A stretch of DNA of 30,763 bases, taken from the IMG/VR virus record IMGVR_UViG_2718218434_000001. The stretch is one strand, 5' to 3'. Position numbers and translations under genes: made by a program. A model generated the notes under the pieces. That model did no database searches and had not been told where the DNA came from. It saw only the letters and a program-made list of their open reading frames with translations. Positions 1,659 to 20,991 of the stretch are shown one piece after another. The stretch's first letter is position 1, and every line of letters starts with the position of its first letter. This stretch comes from a virus. Lineage: Duplodnaviria; Heunggongvirae; Uroviricota; Caudoviricetes.

Positions 1659-4130
1659 TTAAGAATCAGCCTGACTCGGGATCAGTTTTTGCCAGATAAC
1701 TGAAACGTATTTTGCCTGGTAACGGGCGTCATCAAGTGCATTATGGCGCTCACCTTCGAATGGAATAGCCGTTCTGGCATCGAAGTCTATGGCTTTCCCC
1801 AGCTCAACGATTGTGCGTACATCGCGATCGTTGTAGTAACGCCACGGGCAGGGGATCCCCTGCCGTTCGTATGAACGGCGCAAAATCGTGTTGTCGAAGT
1901 TGGCTCCATTTCCCCAAACCTGAACAAAAAATTCACCGGAGTTTTCGTCGATAAATTCCCGCAATTGTAACAGTGCATCATCTAACGGGATTTCATCGGT
2001 CATAATGGCAGATTGCGCTTCGCGTGATTGCTTAAGCCACCATTTAATGGTGTCCCGATCAATGACTCCGCCAGCAGTTTCCAGATCGATAGTCTTACTA
2101 AATTCCGGTCCCATATCTCCGGTTTGCGGATCGAAAAATATTGCACCTATTGAGATGATCGGGGCATCAGGATTTTTTCCCATGGTTTCAAGGTCGATCA
2201 TTAGATGGTCACACGTCCTGCTGGTGGATGTGATTTCGTGATGACCGTTCACCTTAATTGAGTGATCTGCCGTCTCGCCAGTTTCATTATCGCTATTGTG
2301 ATGCTGATTGCCGCCAGTGTTCTCCTTGTGTGGATGTTCAGCGCCTTCCATTTCCTCCGGATCATCTTCCTGAACTTCAACCTGATACTCTTCATCGAAT
2401 GTTTCCTGGTATGTTGCGTCGCCCATCACCGCGCCACAATCAGGGCAGTTGCCGCCGCCGGTCTGACCGCAGGCGGTGCAGACTTTTTCCACTTCCTGTT
2501 GCGCCACTGGTTCAGGCTGTTTCGTTTCTGGCTCGTTTTGTAACGCATTTGGGCTGTTTTGTTCCGCTTTTTGGTAGTTCCGTTCCGATTCATGCTGGTT
2601 CTGGTTCACAGAATCGCGGGTCTGGATCCCCTTAACCCATTTCGGATCATTCGGGTCACTAATCCCTTCAACAAATTCACCACGTGATGCAGCAAGCAAC
2701 TTATCGGCGTCAGGCTGGCTGATATTGGCTGCCTGCATAATTTTGTTTACTTCGTCAGCGGTAACTTTTATCGGTTCTGGTTGTTCTGAATCTTCAGCGG
2801 TATCTACATTTTGCGGTAAGCCCGTGTATGTGCCATTTTTTCGGGCAAAATATTCTTCTTTTGTGATTTCAGTGGCGCCAGCAGCCAGTGCCTTATCCAG
2901 ACCAGAAAGTTTGTTTGCGCGACCGTATTTTTCTCCGTCCTTATCTGCGAAGAGGAAATAGAACGGCCCCTCACGCTCTACAGATGGTTCAGCTTCCGGC
3001 GCGGTTTCATTTTTTGGGATATCAGATACCTCAGTTTCCACTGCATCAGTTTGTGTTTCTGATGACTGGAGAACATCAACAGTGCCCAGGTCTGTTTCTT
3101 CATTCTCAAACACGCCCTTTGTCGTCAGGTATTCGCAGATATATTTGTTCAGTGCTACGGGATCTTTGTGAATGTCGATCGGACGCTCACGGACAAGGCC
3201 AAAAATAGTTTGGCGGGCGTAGCGAAGGGCATCAGGCTGTTTGCGCATTGATGCCGAGATACGCTTCCAGTCTTCGCGGTCGTTGTCGATAACTTCTTTT
3301 TTTGCCCAGCGATGGATGCTGCCGTCAATGTTTCCGGCAACCACATCACCAGGCCAGAGAGCGTAGGCCAGTTCGTCATCCAGTGTTTTCCATGTCTGCT
3401 TGTATTCGCGATGAATGGCAGCAATGACCGGGCTGATTTTTCCTGTTGAATTTTCAGTGTACTGTTGATTGGCTCTGGTGCGGGCGAGATCAACAACAGA
3501 CGTGTATTTTCCGGTTTCATTGCGTTCACCTTCGCGACGTTTTTTCCAGATGCGCATCTCTGCCTGAATTTCGGGCCATTTAGCACCAGGAATACATTTA
3601 TGCTTAACCCACCCAATGGCGTGCAACTTAAGCTCCGGAAACATGGCGTTAACTTCTGGCATTTTCATCAACGCTTCAACGATATGTCCGTCGAATGTTG
3701 CCATGTCTTCCTGCAACAATTCCTGTGCGCTAATAACCATATCAACGGTGATGTTTTCACATGTGTCGAACTTAACCATGACAGCGTTCTGTACTTCAGG
3801 GGCCAGCTTGTCAAAAGTGACGTTCATCGGATCGGATTTAGTCTCAACCGGGACAAAAGAAGCAGACTCCTCATCCCAGCGGTTTTCCTGCATATATTCA
3901 GCATCCCATGAATCGAGGGCAGGGCGGGGTATGCCAGGTTTATCCTCGCAGACAATAAATTTATAAGCGCAGTCCTGAGCAGCCGGATAATGTTCCAGGA
4001 ACTGCCAGTGAAATTTTGCTCGAGCACGGCGTTCGTCGCCAGCTTCAATGGCAGTGGCTACAGCCACAGCGCCTTCTTCCCTTGTTGCCAGTTCGTCAGG
4101 AATAGCGGCGCAAATAAAGACTTTACTCAT
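1659..4130 (-). CDS. Large prophage exonuclease (exodeoxyribonuclease VIII-like / YdfE-like) with C-terminal DEDDh 3'-5' exonuclease domain
   Basis: 823-aa ORF; C-terminus shows the three DnaQ-like motifs (DLET, WGNGANFDN, HNALDDARY); acidic and Gln-rich low-complexity middle and a CxxC...CxxC zinc-ribbon-like segment; no recT-like partner present. Confidence 0.8.
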   Translation of the reverse strand: MSKVFICAAIPDELATREEGAVAVATAIEAGDERRARAKFHWQFLEHYPAAQDCAYKFIVCEDKPGIPRPALDSWDAEYMQENRWDEESASFVPVETKSDPMNVTFDKLAPEVQNAVMVKFDTCENITVDMVISAQELLQEDMATFDGHIVEALMKMPEVNAMFPELKLHAIGWVKHKCIPGAKWPEIQAEMRIWKKRREGERNETGKYTSVVDLARTRANQQYTENSTGKISPVIAAIHREYKQTWKTLDDELAYALWPGDVVAGNIDGSIHRWAKKEVIDNDREDWKRISASMRKQPDALRYARQTIFGLVRERPIDIHKDPVALNKYICEYLTTKGVFENEETDLGTVDVLQSSETQTDAVETEVSDIPKNETAPEAEPSVEREGPFYFLFADKDGEKYGRANKLSGLDKALAAGATEITKEEYFARKNGTYTGLPQNVDTAEDSEQPEPIKVTADEVNKIMQAANISQPDADKLLAASRGEFVEGISDPNDPKWVKGIQTRDSVNQNQHESERNYQKAEQNSPNALQNEPETKQPEPVAQQEVEKVCTACGQTGGGNCPDCGAVMGDATYQETFDEEYQVEVQEDDPEEMEGAEHPHKENTGGNQHHNSDNETGETADHSIKVNGHHEITSTSRTCDHLMIDLETMGKNPDAPIISIGAIFFDPQTGDMGPEFSKTIDLETAGGVIDRDTIKWWLKQSREAQSAIMTDEIPLDDALLQLREFIDENSGEFFVQVWGNGANFDNTILRRSYERQGIPCPWRYYNDRDVRTIVELGKAIDFDARTAIPFEGERHNALDDARYQAKYVSVIWQKLIPSQADS

Positions 4131-4223: not shown

Positions 4224-4415
4224 TTAAAGACCTGCCGGGATTTCGATATTATCCTGGTGAATAACTTTATCGACCGGGGAACAGTTACCGGGAATTTTCT
4301 GTTCGGTTGCTGCAGTCATACACTCCTGCATTGTCTTGTGAACACTGACTGCAATATCAACTGGCTCTCCGGAAACAAGAAAAACTGTCAGAACAAGCGC
4401 AAATGCTGAATTCAT
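4224..4415 (-). CDS. ydfD: Qin-type lysis protein YdfD (63 aa)
   Basis: Internal Met start gives MNSAFALVLTVFLVSGEPVD..., matching recalled YdfD; start codon overlaps dicB stop (ATGA). Confidence 0.8.
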   Translation of the reverse strand: MNSAFALVLTVFLVSGEPVDIAVSVHKTMQECMTAATEQKIPGNCSPVDKVIHQDNIEIPAGL

Positions 4416-4600
4416 TGTGCACATCCTTTTGGCATCAGACGTAAACGAGCCAGCATTGAAACAATGCATATTTTATTTAATAGCTCCCGTTCTTGTTTTC
4501 TCTTGTTAATGGCATCTTCAGTAAATACAGGGTTACTGATAGTGACACCAATTTCAAAACAACCTTCAGACGTATTAACGTTTGGTAATAACGTTTTCAT
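4412..4600 (-). CDS. dicB: Cell division inhibitor DicB (62 aa)
   Basis: Translation from internal ATG (MKTLLPNVNTSEGCFEIGVTISNPVFTEDAINKRKQERELL...MPKGCAQ) matches recalled DicB; GAGGA RBS 7 nt upstream. Confidence 0.85.
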   Translation of the reverse strand: MKTLLPNVNTSEGCFEIGVTISNPVFTEDAINKRKQERELLNKICIVSMLARLRLMPKGCAQ

Positions 4601-4770
4601 TATCGCGTCCTCAACAATGAATTTTGTGATGCAGTGCCTGGTGCCTCCAGGTGACGTTAACCAGTTAACAATTAACGCCGGATACAGAGAATCCACCCAT
4701 AACACTGTTTTTGGTTTTAACTGTTCCGCGTGCGCTTAGCCGCATTCACCGCATCACAAAATTCACTTTA

Positions 4771-4827
4771 AAAACGGCGGCAGAGCAGTCACGGAGTAAA
4801 ACTGATACCGCCAAACGTCACCAGAAA
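4771..4827 (-). ncRNA. dicF: DicF small regulatory RNA (ftsZ-targeting), with 3' stem-loop and U-tract
   Basis: Minus-strand sequence TTTCTGGTGACGTTTGGCGGTATCAGTTTTACTCCGTGACTGCTCTGCCGCCGTTTTT matches the recalled DicF sequence; located between ydfB/C-like gene and dicB as in the dic operon. Confidence 0.8.
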
Positions 4828-5102
4828 ATTGATAACAGAGGGCGTTGCAGCGGGGTTGTCACTTAAGCGTATGGTCAACCTGACAACTCGGTGTCCTCAA
4901 CGGGGAAGGAATAACCCCGCCATACTTACCGCCGCGCCATTTCGCGGGTTGCCACAACCGGAAGCGCACGGTCGAATTAAATTTAACGACACCGTACAGT
5001 GAGACGAACTTCGCCGTGCGCTTTCGTGTTGTGTGCCTGCTTTTAACCACGTCAGGCGAGGTGGTATCCTTCTTATCCCGAATAACCAAGAAGGAAATCT
5101 AT

Positions 5103-5303
5103 ATGACTAAAGAAGAATTTGTCTCTTATATTTTTGATAAAACGGTTGAAATGTATGCCGCTACTTACGGGTCCTGTAATCCTCTGAATAAACCAGAGGG
5201 GAAAGATGATTTCGACAAAATTTACCGCTTCTTGGAGGACCGCTATATCAAAAGGTTAGAGGACGCAGGGATCAAATCCCCAGTGAAGTCACCATTGTCC
5301 TGA
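5103..5303 (+). CDS. Hypothetical small protein (66 aa, MTKEEFVSYIFDK...), antisense to the dic operon
   Basis: ATG with AAGGAA RBS 7 nt upstream; AT-rich codon usage; overlaps the 3' end of the minus-strand 125-aa ORF; no recognisable family. Confidence 0.35.
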   Translation: MTKEEFVSYIFDKTVEMYAATYGSCNPLNKPEGKDDFDKIYRFLEDRYIKRLEDAGIKSPVKSPLS

Positions 5304-5649
5304 GAACTTGCAGGACGTCATGATCGTAACTTCCATCCAAACCGCGACGGCAAATTGCTTCTCGTATTACCGGAAGCAGTTCGCTGGAAATCTCGGTGCA
5401 TATTTCACCTGATAATACGCCTGGCTCAAGTGAGAATATTGGTGAACTTACGGTCTTGGTCTCGACAGTTTCAGAGTCAGTGCCAACATTATAAAGCTCA
5501 ACGAAAGCGGTCTTGATTTTCCGGGCCAGATCTTTTGCTGGCTCGCTTGCAATATCTTTCCCGATTTCTCGCAGCACAGAATGCAATGTATGAGCTGCTG
5601 TTTTCTGTACATCAGACGGTAAATCTTTAAATTCCATCGTTAGCCTCAT
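5272..5649 (-). CDS. Hypothetical dic-operon protein (YdfB/YdfC-like region, 125 aa)
   Basis: ORF between ydfA and dicF on the operon strand; start overlaps ydfA stop (TGATG); identity to YdfB/YdfC is positional inference only. Confidence 0.5.
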   Translation of the reverse strand: MRLTMEFKDLPSDVQKTAAHTLHSVLREIGKDIASEPAKDLARKIKTAFVELYNVGTDSETVETKTVSSPIFSLEPGVLSGEICTEISSELLPVIREAICRRGLDGSYDHDVLQVLRTMVTSLGI

Positions 5650-5801
5650 CAGTCAGTGTTTCTGGCTAACCAGCAACGCGCGCCAGATTCGGTTTTAAAC
5701 GTTTTGCTTTTGGTATATGTCATCGCGGTGAACGTACCGTCCTGGTTGGGGAACACGCCACATACCAGAGATTCGCTGTTGCCAAGATCGATAGTATCCA
5801 T
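5649..5801 (-). CDS. ydfA: Small protein YdfA (50 aa)
   Basis: Internal Met start MDTIDLGNSESLVCGVFPNQDGTFTAMTYTKSKTFK... matches recalled YdfA; GAGGT RBS upstream of ATG at 5801. Confidence 0.7.
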   Translation of the reverse strand: MDTIDLGNSESLVCGVFPNQDGTFTAMTYTKSKTFKTESGARCWLARNTD

Positions 5802-5993: not shown

Positions 5994-6401
5994 TTATTGA
6001 TGCTTGTTGCGTTTGCGAGCCTCTAATAGCTCGGTGAACAGGCGATTAAAATTCTCAACGCGGGCGCGGAGTTCGCTGAGTTGTGCTTGTTGCTCTGATT
6101 TAGGAAGTGCGCGATACAAACGCAGCATCTCTAACTCATCTTCCGATAAGTCTAAGGCACTATCGAGTGAAACAGGGGGAGCTGGTGTTTTGTCCTCGTC
6201 GCCAAACAGTATCCAGGTTGGTGAACATTGCAATACCTCGGCGAGGCGATGCAAATTTTGCCCGCGCGGGGCTGTATGGTCACTTTCCCATAATGAAATT
6301 GATGAGCCAGATACGCCAGCAGCTTTGCTTAAACCGTTTTGACTTAAGCCTACCTGCTTACGTCTTTCTCTAATGCGTTGACCTAAAGTTTTCTCGTTCA
6401 T
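5994..6401 (-). CDS. dicA: DicA-like HTH (XRE-family) prophage repressor, 135 aa from internal Met
   Basis: HTH segment (LSQNGLSKAAGVSGSSISLWE) and LQCSPTWILFGDEDK motif shared with recalled DicA; divergent from a Cro-like gene. Confidence 0.75.
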   Translation of the reverse strand: MNEKTLGQRIRERRKQVGLSQNGLSKAAGVSGSSISLWESDHTAPRGQNLHRLAEVLQCSPTWILFGDEDKTPAPPVSLDSALDLSEDELEMLRLYRALPKSEQQAQLSELRARVENFNRLFTELLEARKRNKHQ

Positions 6402-6478
6402 ATTTAGATATCTTAATAACCCTTGACTTGAGATTCCTTGAGTGATTAGCATTGAGAAAACTCAATGCTGGAGGTGCG
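6402..6478. promoter_or_regulatory. Divergent promoter/operator region between dicA-like repressor and Cro/DicC-like gene
   Basis: 77-bp spacer between divergent start codons containing repeated CTTGAG / TTAGATATCTTAA elements; operator identity not verified. Confidence 0.45.
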
Positions 6479-10605: not shown

Positions 10606-11279
10606 GTCGTCACCTTGATGATTTGTTAATGCGGGGGCAACATTAATAAATGTACTTGAGACCGCAATTTGTCGATGGAGCCAACATTTATAACTATGTG
10701 CTTCTACCCTCTGAATTTTTACATGTGAATTGCTAGCTTGAATAGCTCTATCATTATATACGTGGCACTAAATTATGGCTGTTTTTCGCTCAAAGCGGAC
10801 TAGAAGGTTAGCTTGTGTCGGACTTTGCGTATTAAAAGAAGTGCTGGTGGTGACTAGTGGTTGTGCCCCATTTCCACAGAAAAAATCAGAGAAACTATAC
10901 CCAATAGTTGTATTGAATCACTGACGAGACAGCCTCATATTCATCAGGACTGGTCTACGTCCAATACAGGAGGTTGTGGTGCTGGTTCTCAAATGTGCGC
11001 TGGCTATTACGGCTGTAATGGCGATTTATTGTCTTGCTATTGTTCTTATGGATCGCCTTTCTGACTGATTTCATATTGGCGAGGTAACGGTAGTTAAGTA
11101 GAATGGCTGCGGGTGCTTGAGGCTATCTGCCTCGGGCATGAACACCAAAGGCAGATAGAGAAAAGCCCCAGTTAACATTACGCGTCCTGCAAGACGCTTA
11201 ACATTAATCTGAGGCCAATTTCATGCTAGACACATGTAGGTTAGCCTCTTACGTGCCGAAAGGCAAGGAGAAGCAGGCT

Positions 11280-11435
11280 ATGAAGCAGCAAAAGGCGATG
11301 TTAATCGCCCTGATCGTCATCTGTTTAACCGTCATAGTGACGGCACTGGTAACGAGGAAAGACCTCTGCGAGGTACGAATCCGAACCGGCCAGACGGAGG
11401 TCGCTGTCTTCACAGCTTACGAACCTGAGGAGTAA
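11280..11435 (+). CDS. hokD: Hok/Gef-family membrane toxin (HokD/RelF-like, 51 aa)
   Basis: Translation MKQQKAMLIALIVICLTVIVTALVTRKDLCEVRIRTGQTEVAVFTAYEPEE matches recalled HokD; structured leader upstream (10-bp inverted repeat CTATCTGCCT/AGGCAGATAG); no relBE upstream. Confidence 0.85.
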   Translation: MKQQKAMLIALIVICLTVIVTALVTRKDLCEVRIRTGQTEVAVFTAYEPEE

Positions 11436-20216: not shown

Positions 20217-20579
20217 ATTAATATTAAATCGGATTATTTTTAGCGCTGAATGTGAAATTTAAATAAAAAGGACTCTTCCATGAGTCAAAATCCTTGAAAT
20301 CTTAAGGGTAAGATAAAAGGTCATTAGACAGAATGACACGTTTTATTAATAAATAAAGCTATTGTTTCATTCGTGTGTTTTTCTTTACAAAAGTAATCCT
20401 TGCTATGGTTGGTTAATCATGCGTTAATGGTGTTCTGGTTTGTTACAAAATTATCTGAAGCAGTCATTGTTATAATTTTATTATTTGTACCTCTTGAGAT
20501 TTCCTTGTTGGTTTTTCTCTCTGATATTTTTTTTCGGACCATTCTGCCCAAGGGCTAACTTCTTCAAAAGGTAATAATG

Positions 20580-20792
20580 ATGTCTAACAAAATGACTGGT
20601 TTAGTGAAATGGTTTAACCCTGAAAAAGGTTTTGGTTTCATCACGCCGAAAGATGGTAGCAAAGATGTGTTTGTCCATTTCTCAGCTATTCAGAGCAACG
20701 ATTTCAAAACGTTAACTGAGAATCAGGAAGTCGAATTTGGTATTGAGAACGGACCTAAAGGCCCCGCGGCTGTTCATGTTGTGGCACTTTGA
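20580..20792 (+). CDS. cspI: Cold-shock protein CspI-like (CspA family, 70 aa)
   Basis: Translation [38 protein letters not shown]... with RNP motifs; long AT-rich 5' UTR (20220-20576). Confidence 0.9.
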
Positions 20793-20991
20793 GGTAGAAA
20801 ATATTACAAACCATATTCACTTTAGATGCCCGTGTTGCCATGGTTCTCAGTATAGAACATCATCTTTTGATGTTTCTGACAGGAATCCTTTCGGGGCAAA
20901 ATGTATCTTTTGTAAATCAATGATGATTACATTTGATAATATTTCACAATACTTAAATGTTAGCCGTCTATCGTTAGATTTAAGAAAGTGA
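20776..20991 (+). CDS. Candidate small zinc-ribbon protein (CxxC...CxxC) downstream of cspI (YnfQ/YmcF-like?)
   Basis: ORF overlapping cspI end in another frame; contains CPCCHG and CIFCKS pairs; start codon uncertain. Confidence 0.3.

Follow-up and report, generated by a model that had tools for sequence, protein, structure and literature searches.

The spacer between the small RNA gene dicF and the next gene upstream in its operon was analysed in the 30,763-nucleotide Caudoviricetes record IMGVR_UViG_2718218434_000001, the whole of which is referred to here as the window. This region probably holds two independent elements on opposite strands: a DicF maturation unit on the minus strand (4775–5036) and a self-contained small gene on the plus strand (5041–5303). 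The body of the maturation unit is a 124-nucleotide (nt) RNA domain that is structured, conserved and modular. The finding is real, and it is largely explained by known DicF biology.

An earlier note on this sequence had described the spacer and an antisense open reading frame (ORF) as one feature. Its observations are confirmed overall and its interpretation is supported in part; spacer and ORF are instead two independent mosaic modules that abut at ~5050–5075. Megablast searches located 4700–~5071 in 4,589 of 5,426 complete Escherichia coli genomes at 80–100% identity, and ~5071–5700, comprising the small ORF and a gene of 121 amino acids (aa), in just 385 of them. A covariance model of the spacer RNA (R1) gave zero matches at the remaining loci with small-ORF relatives. 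The two segments are regarded as separate modules because of these differing counts and the absence of R1 from the other ORF loci. The ~270-base-pair (bp) spacer of the earlier note corresponds to 4828–5102, from DicF to the start of the small ORF, and DicF lies 444 nt from the stop codon of the 121-aa gene (5272).

RNAalifold, together with a curated structure, resolves the domain into a four-way junction of helices P1–P4. Helix P1, the closing stem, is formed by GUUGUGG/CUGCAAC in the window and by GUUGUGG/CYRCAAC across the family. Helix P2 is an invariant hairpin, CCGCG-AAAUGG-CGCGG. Helix P3 (CGGU..ACCG) bears a hypervariable apical hairpin, P3a, and helix P4 is long, with the form GAGUUGUCAGGU..GCU..UGACAACCC. 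Model R1 identifies exactly one copy of the domain in the window, at 144 bits; the copy in E. coli K-12 scores 148 bits.

The structure is carried by comparative evidence. Standard pairs fill 96.1% of the pair cells in an alignment of 64 distinct sequences, and 39–55% when the partners are slid by 1–3 columns. Compensatory changes occur at 10 pairs in these sequences, distributed over P1, P3, P3a and P4. For P3a, nine or more unrelated sequences are known, and each of them folds into a 4–7-bp hairpin with a pyrimidine-rich loop (UUCCUU, UCCUCC, CUCCUU or GUCCU) between nearly invariant flanks.

It is very improbable that the domain has no function of its own and is a recent linker, spread between phage modules by recombination and needing merely structure, for instance as protection of a long untranslated region against Rho. 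Such a linker would be in keeping with the >90% identity of most copies, with the phage mosaic joints at the domain edges and with a minimum free energy (MFE) no better than that of shuffled sequences. It does not account for the compensatory changes in four helices, the wholesale exchange of P3a for unrelated hairpins within fixed flanks, the 79% identity retained in phage P1 in an entirely different operon, or the drop in paired cells from 96% to ~40–55% upon sliding the register. There is next to no chance that the spacer encodes protein. Two ORFs do exist, of 76 aa at 4859–5089 on the minus strand and of 57 aa at 4829–5002 on the plus strand, and neither has a Pfam match. A coding role is ruled out because close relatives differ by single-base indels (CCCCG versus CCCCCG; a 1-nt deletion in locus L015) and because the P3a replacements differ in length by non-multiples of three; no reading frame is conserved among the variants.

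Rfam searches of 4650–5400 at E ≤ 10 matched DicF alone, leaving the domain unmatched, and gave no match to the C4 and isrK antisense RNAs (RF01695, RF01394). A tRNA or tRNA-like element was rejected, as ARAGORN called no gene and Rfam matched no tRNA; what is shared is the four-way-junction topology only. The second repeat of the spacer, GGCGGGGUU/AACCCCGC (4850–4864/4906–4920), falls within the domain. As a long-range pairing it was discarded, being lost in variants with another P3a, in which the local hairpin is kept. A nut-like reading, with a boxA-like motif and P2 as boxB, was dismissed for want of an N-like protein and a boxA agreeing at just 5–6 of 8 positions. Separately, the ribosome-binding region of dicB (UUGUUGAGGACGCG, 4603–4612, minus strand) repeats the domain's GUUGAGGAC just 3′ of P3a (4890–4898, minus strand), and the P3a loop UUCCUU is complementary to both the UUGUUGAGGACGCG region and the GUUGAGGAC copy.

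The 124-nt domain aligns with sequences from K-12, phage cdtI and phage P1, and a scan of IMG/VR yielded ~130 further copies. In every evaluable copy, that is, one with enough flank (131/131), the domain is followed by 12–46 nt of single strand and then by an intrinsic terminator. Sequences of this unpaired stretch fall into at least eight linker/seed classes, and, besides the DicF-type tail, one of nine variant loci passes the Rfam DicF threshold. A 15-base pattern scan of genome contigs produced nearly all chance matches in unrelated phyla, an Escherichia albertii locus (L149) being the sole real one. The earlier note's suggestion of an additional small RNA is only half borne out: conservation and covariation mark the 124-nt body as an RNA domain, one that other phages carry without DicF.

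The ban leader of phage P1 carries the domain without DicF, at 88 bits with R1 and with compensatory changes in P3a and P4. The domain begins ~20–25 nt past the annotated C1-controlled Pban start, overlaps an annotated "dicF-like region" (misc_feature 68791–68892, NC_005856), and is followed in order by a short linker, a terminator, two tRNA genes and ban. Phage cdtI and the Stx2c phages likewise carry the domain without DicF, ~280 nt past a consensus early-left promoter and upstream of a strong terminator and then all the early-left genes. The domain is single-copy in the window and in the cdtI locus, with none on the rightward (pR/cro) side.

Two observations concern the surroundings of DicF-like units. 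A pair of isrK and C4 RNAs, as in the immI region of phage P1, lies within a few hundred nucleotides of such a unit in three loci (L015, 5046–5234; L095, 1171–1359; L064, 4732–4920) and elsewhere in the immunity region of a fourth (L008, 540–728); the pair is absent from the window. In the 254-kb Aeromonas phage AP1, 78 nt (MT713136.1, 249906–249983) are 100% identical to window positions 4760–4837, which comprise DicF and its upstream linker. This stretch is odd in an Aeromonas jumbo phage, and may reflect contamination or very recent transfer.

The processing of DicF in K-12 provides the framework for the minus-strand unit. A 190-nt precursor from the Qin dicBF operon was reportedly described by Faubladier et al. 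in 1990. According to Ragunathan et al. 2023, the 190-nt form in that operon is RNase III-dependent and accumulates upon RNase E inactivation, the 53-nt form is RNase E-dependent, and dicBF transcripts include a terminated species of 1,146 nt and a read-through species of 1,608 nt (PMC10448788). The window aligns with the K-12 ydfC–dicF spacer from ~5050 to DicF. Its DicF matches Rfam RF00039 over the full length of the model (4775–4826, minus strand; 72.5 bits versus a gathering score of 48) and differs from K-12 dicF at one position, directly after the terminator stem; the linker at 4828–4837 is identical in K-12.

The inverted repeat singled out in the earlier note, AGCGCACGGTCGAA...TTCGCCGTGCGC, is real. 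Its arms (4959–4971/5014–5026) are 92% complementary and constitute the core of a longer hairpin with a 5′ arm at 5010–5036 and a 3′ arm at 4951–4976. The 87-nt hairpin at 4950–5036 on the minus strand has a folding free energy of −38.6 kcal/mol (z = −4.8). Not one of 200 shuffled sequences was as stable, and the K-12 homologue of the hairpin adopts the same fold. Counting 190 nt back from the 3′ end of DicF places the 5′ end of the precursor at ~4960–4964, in the 3′ arm of this hairpin, and a duplex of about two helical turns spans that end. In K-12, the 5′ end computed in this way precedes the start of model R1 by 3 nt. The proposal that the spacer contains a DicF processing or precursor structure is borne out: the repeat is the stem in which the RNase III cut for 190-nt DicF is expected, and the stretch between it and DicF is the body of the precursor.

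Several sequences in this unit have alternative partners. The hairpin base, CACAAC/GUUGUG, shares GUUGUG with helix P1 of the domain, and GUUGUGG thereby has two mutually exclusive partners, CACAAC at the hairpin base and the 3′ strand of P1. An equivalent competition for GUUGUGG, with a different hairpin sequence, exists in the cdtI locus. In addition, CCGUGCGCUU in the 3′ arm of the hairpin (4962–4971) can pair alternatively with AAGCGCACG at 4726–4737, which would bracket the whole 190-nt unit. This bracket stem is present in both the MFE and the centroid structure of 4700–4985 on the minus strand, and an equivalently placed bracket in the cdtI-type locus consists of other sequences (GUGCUCU/AGAGCAU).

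It is proposed that RNase III would cut the 22–26-bp hairpin (4951–5036) and so generate the 5′ end of ~190-nt DicF. The cut would free GUUGUGG from CACAAC, enabling it to close helix P1 of the four-way junction (4838–4961). RNase E would then cleave the AU-rich single strand, at a point 10 nt beyond the 3′ end of the 124-nt domain as modelled, and so release a 53-nt seed-plus-terminator RNA that would act in trans. In phage P1, the nearby promoter rather than RNase III would set the 5′ end; because the domain begins so soon after the C1-controlled promoter, no RNase III hairpin is needed there. The cut site in the window, the pairing switch of GUUGUGG and a role for the domain in folding and processing are all inferred. 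In the preferred reading, the four-way junction is a reusable scaffold to which enterobacterial phages fit different single-stranded tails and terminators, and the domain defines a family of small RNAs embedded in operons or leaders, with DicF as one allele.

A cis-acting role in transcription control is unlikely, though several observations favour it. Like the put RNAs of phage HK022 or the EAR element of Bacillus, the domain would modify the RNA polymerase that had just transcribed it or switch its own fold, whereupon the adjoining DicF terminator and later ones would be read through. Expression of dicB and the remaining early-left genes could follow, with the small RNA as a by-product of the terminated fraction. 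All 131 copies lie directly upstream of an intrinsic terminator that precedes genes the phage must express, namely dicB, ydfD and the exonuclease gene in the window, all early-left genes in cdtI, and the tRNA genes and ban in phage P1. An N-like gene is not evident in these operons, the nearly invariant loops and junctions fit binding of a conserved host machine, and both terminated and read-through transcripts exist in K-12 (PMC10448788). The two mutually exclusive partners of GUUGUGG would also suit a switch. Furthermore, GGCGGUA occurs twice on the minus strand, at the junction and P3 of the domain (4926–4934) and in the DicF terminator, as its 5′ arm (4806–4816), and in the MFE structure of the isolated 194-nt RNA the domain copy pairs with the 3′ arm of the terminator. 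This modelled pairing may represent an antiterminator conformation. It is not conserved in phage P1, which lacks the GGCGG repeat and has an unrelated terminator.

Similarity to the known antiterminator RNAs is of a general kind. Like HK022 put and B. subtilis EAR, the domain is a structured RNA of ~70–120 nt, situated within a phage or long operon or at its head and upstream of terminators, with no dedicated protein evident. The put elements, however, consist of two stem-loops of ~70 nt, with copies after both early promoters (putL and putR), whereas the domain is a single 124-nt four-helix junction, present once per phage region, absent from the pR/cro side and always fused to a terminator. 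Comparison with the HK022 pL–cI–pR region by blastn (word size 7) found nothing better than E = 9.5, and putL, read directly, is unlike the domain. A processive antiterminator would not need a terminator fixed 12–46 nt away, and processing alone accounts for the published K-12 data. Somewhat less doubtful, and still tentative, is the idea of an undescribed structured phage RNA family with a function of its own, in which the domain would contact some conserved host machine, be it RNA polymerase, RNase E or a different factor, and govern the fate of the fused terminator. DicF, the "dicF-like" RNA of phage P1 and the cdtI/Stx2c leaders would then be alleles of one programmable cassette with a constant head and an exchangeable tail. 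The near-invariant loops and junctions do suggest a specific binding partner.

Some small RNAs are excised from longer transcripts by RNase III, RNase E or both, among them those with ArcZ/RprA-type 3′ processing and RNase III-processed ones (PMC8687705, PMC11745405). As in the DicF unit, host endonucleases release a mature seed-plus-terminator RNA from a longer structured precursor; the DicF unit differs in that its precursor body is a conserved module in its own right, joined to interchangeable seeds in different phages. The K-12 precursor shares with the window the hairpin, the 124-nt body, the RNase E linker and the position upstream of dicB, but has ydfB/ydfC upstream in place of the 121-aa gene and the antisense 66-aa gene. 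The K-12 DicF literature covered treats the 137 nt upstream of DicF as mere precursor, not as a structured domain common to loci without DicF. The ban leader of phage P1 shares the four-way-junction domain, a short linker and an intrinsic terminator, whereas its tail and terminator are unrelated to DicF, fall below the Rfam DicF threshold and are followed by tRNA genes and ban.

The plus-strand element is the 66-aa ORF, which the earlier note had rightly described as having a good ribosome-binding site and overlapping the operon gene. Its reality rests on conservation, because its size alone is not significant: 4.5 kb contain 53 ORFs of at least 30 aa. Searching 5.8 billion proteins with the 66-aa sequence returned 19 clusters, with full-length homologues at 89, 88, 73 (Cedecea), 57 and 54% identity and an invariant N-terminus, MT.EE.V.YIFDKTVE. 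For three close pairs, the ratio of nonsynonymous to synonymous substitution rates (dN/dS) is 0.23, 0.12 and 0.18 at dS 0.25–0.42, and it ranges from 0.12 to 0.28 for unsaturated pairs. At 54–73% identity, where synonymous sites are saturated, frame and length (65–66 aa) are kept. These patterns indicate that the ORF is under purifying selection and is a real small phage gene. The idea of an unannotated antisense small protein is correct as to the gene but not as to its annotation, as RefSeq already lists it as a hypothetical protein of E. coli C (WP_000159335.1).

The protein matches phrog_34441, a family without known function, over residues 1–66 of 66 (E = 1.5e-50). AlphaFold2 predicts helices at residues 3–22 and 31–54 with a mean predicted local distance difference test score of 81.5. 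Pfam has no family for it; a weak match to Zn_ribbon_16 (E = 0.04) was dismissed on the single cysteine. No PADLOC defence family matched the 66-aa protein, the 121-aa protein or the gene 36 product of Shigella phage SfII (SfII_36) at E ≤ 0.1. A hok-like type I toxin, considered since a sok RNA occurs in the window, was rejected, the protein being hydrophilic (~11 lysine or arginine and 12 aspartate or glutamate residues), with two predicted soluble helices and no Pfam or PADLOC match.

In alignment A6, a predicted promoter and ribosome-binding-site block is conserved upstream of homologues with 54–89% protein identity and of SfII_36, a remote relative with this block in common; sequence farther upstream is not conserved. 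A hairpin, TCCTTCTT/AAGAAGGA, can form on both strands at 5067–5095; in it the Shine–Dalgarno sequence of the small gene pairs with the −10 region, and the pairing is kept in L254 and in L004/L005 through changes on both sides. This hairpin would be relevant solely to transcripts from upstream of the predicted promoter or to early-left sense RNA.

It is very improbable that the ORF is untranslated, its conservation reflecting antisense RNA (sense for the early-left operon) or DNA sites and its annotation by the Prokaryotic Genome Annotation Pipeline (PGAP) reflecting merely an open frame. In favour of that reading, the family is very small, Pfam and fold matches are absent, and several database entries (P0015 and others) are truncated or frameshifted. 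The dN/dS values from three independent close pairs, the frame and length held at low identity, and the conserved ribosome-binding site and ATG speak for translation. Moreover, the Cedecea homologue lies in another genome context without the 121-aa partner, and the strand opposite 5103–5271 contains no ORF of at least 30 aa.

The small gene and the 121-aa gene are convergent, the last 32 nt of the latter overlapping the former, and together they are one mosaic cassette. In all loci but Cedecea, the small gene adjoins a repressor gene and converges on the first early-left gene with a 3′ overlap of 32–56 nt. The overlap is kept wherever the partner was called or found (the window, L004, L005, L253, L254, L256 and SfII). 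Only the C-terminal ~40 aa of the partner are conserved, in L004 (E = 5e-7) and SfII. Relatives of the window ORF in phrog_34441 and, more remotely, phrog_2605 (SfII_36) share the promoter–ribosome-binding-site block and the convergent overlap; what differs in the window is that the cassette sits immediately upstream of the DicF unit. Given its place beside the repressor gene and antisense to the early-left operon, the small gene would most likely be active in the lysogen, for as long as early-left repression lasts, and would be silenced by converging transcription once the prophage is induced. Its position and orientation also suggest that small-gene and early-left transcription would interfere mutually.

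Two observations concern the 121-aa protein. Its N-terminal ~52 residues match four further PHROG families (9419, 1363, 2151 and 6937), which points to a widespread N-terminal module fused to different C-termini. In SfII, the early-left leader contains an unannotated 68-aa ORF (L012, 2149–2355, plus strand) that is related to the C-terminus of the 121-aa protein through an ISSELL motif; this ORF and SfII_36 overlap at the 3′ end of the latter.

A number of points weigh against the proposed reading of a scaffolded DicF unit and a separate small gene. The effective sequence number behind the domain is 1.19, P2 has no compensatory changes, and the covariation rests on few events because the sequences are closely related. 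The isolated domain is thermodynamically ordinary (z = −0.5, versus −1.4 for the 194-nt form), and the MFE structure of the 194-nt form favours other long-range pairing; the case for the domain rests on comparison because thermodynamics alone does not single it out. It is not obvious why a mere scaffold would need loops and junctions to be nearly invariant, as GGUAAGUAUGG and CAGGUUGACCAUACGC are. The RNase III site is set by transcript length only, the published coordinate 813/814 not being mappable to the genome. For the small gene, a generic promoter scan made no call at its promoter, and its family is tiny, with 13 matches in a profile search of 1.84 billion cluster representatives, which added just one remote relative. 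The 66-aa protein has no Foldseek match in the PDB and no functional annotation.

Table 1. Elements of the DicF unit, the antisense small gene and the surrounding operon in the window.
Feature	Position	Strand	Basis or remark
Conserved four-way-junction RNA domain, 124 nt, 5′ body of 190-nt DicF	4838–4961	−	Covariance model R1
DicF small RNA, 53-nt form, seed then intrinsic terminator	4775–4827	−	Rfam RF00039
AU-rich single-stranded linker (..GUUAUCAAU); its end coincides with the RNase E cut giving the 5′ end of 53-nt DicF	4828–4837	−	Sequence
Long imperfect hairpin, 22–26 bp, putative RNase III substrate	4951–5036	−	Folding
Downstream copy of AAGCGCACG(C)GG, just past the DicF terminator	4726–4737	−	Can pair with CCGUGCGCUU
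66-aa protein gene, predicted two-helix hairpin	5103–5303	+	phrog_34441; RefSeq WP_000159335.1
Ribosome-binding site AAGGA, 7 nt before ATG	5091–5095	+	Sequence; conserved in alignment A6
Predicted promoter, −35-like TTTTAA and extended −10 TGGTATCCT	5041–5046; 5062–5070	+	Alignment A6; start expected at ~5077
dicB-type early-left (pL-type) operon	Window	−	DicF by Rfam, Pfam and PGAP annotation
Helix-turn-helix repressor gene	5994–6452		Operon member; Pfam
ydfA/DUF1391	5649–5801		Operon member; Pfam
121-aa gene (PGAP; 125 aa from the upstream ATG)	5272–5637/5649	−	phrog_33007
dicB	4412–4600	−	Pfam DicB, E = 1.9e-40; flanked by ydfD and ydfA
ydfD/DUF1482	4224–4415		Operon member; Pfam
823-aa exonuclease gene	1659–4130		Operon member

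DicF lies upstream of dicB, the position it occupies in a dicB-type operon (Table 1). Two further RNA matches lie elsewhere in the window. A sok antitoxin RNA is matched at 11111–11285 on the plus strand (Rfam, 118 bits), and the prophage therefore carries a hok/sok-type type I toxin–antitoxin locus. A match to the cspA thermoregulator 5′ untranslated region at 20422–20838 on the plus strand (109.8 bits) suggests that the prophage also carries a cold-shock protein gene whose leader senses temperature.

Parts of this locus are already known: the hairpin, the 190-nt precursor and DicF from K-12, the ORF as a hypothetical protein, and the similarity of phage P1 to dicF, which is flagged in the P1 record. 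Within the literature searched, which stops short of two key older papers, the possibly new elements are the covarying four-way-junction body, its unrelated tails, the terminator that is always fused to it, and its absence from Rfam.

DicF is among the oldest known bacterial small RNAs, and Rfam models and functional work cover its last 53 nt only. The 137 nt that precede them contain a conserved, covarying domain that is reused with other tails from lambdoid prophages to phage P1, and many "DicF-like" regulators with different targets escape current annotation. The domain is a candidate controller either of small RNA maturation or of the read-through by which dicB and other toxic early genes are reached. 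The small gene on the opposite strand is a conserved, uncharacterised component beside prophage repressors, where genes expressed in the lysogen often occur.

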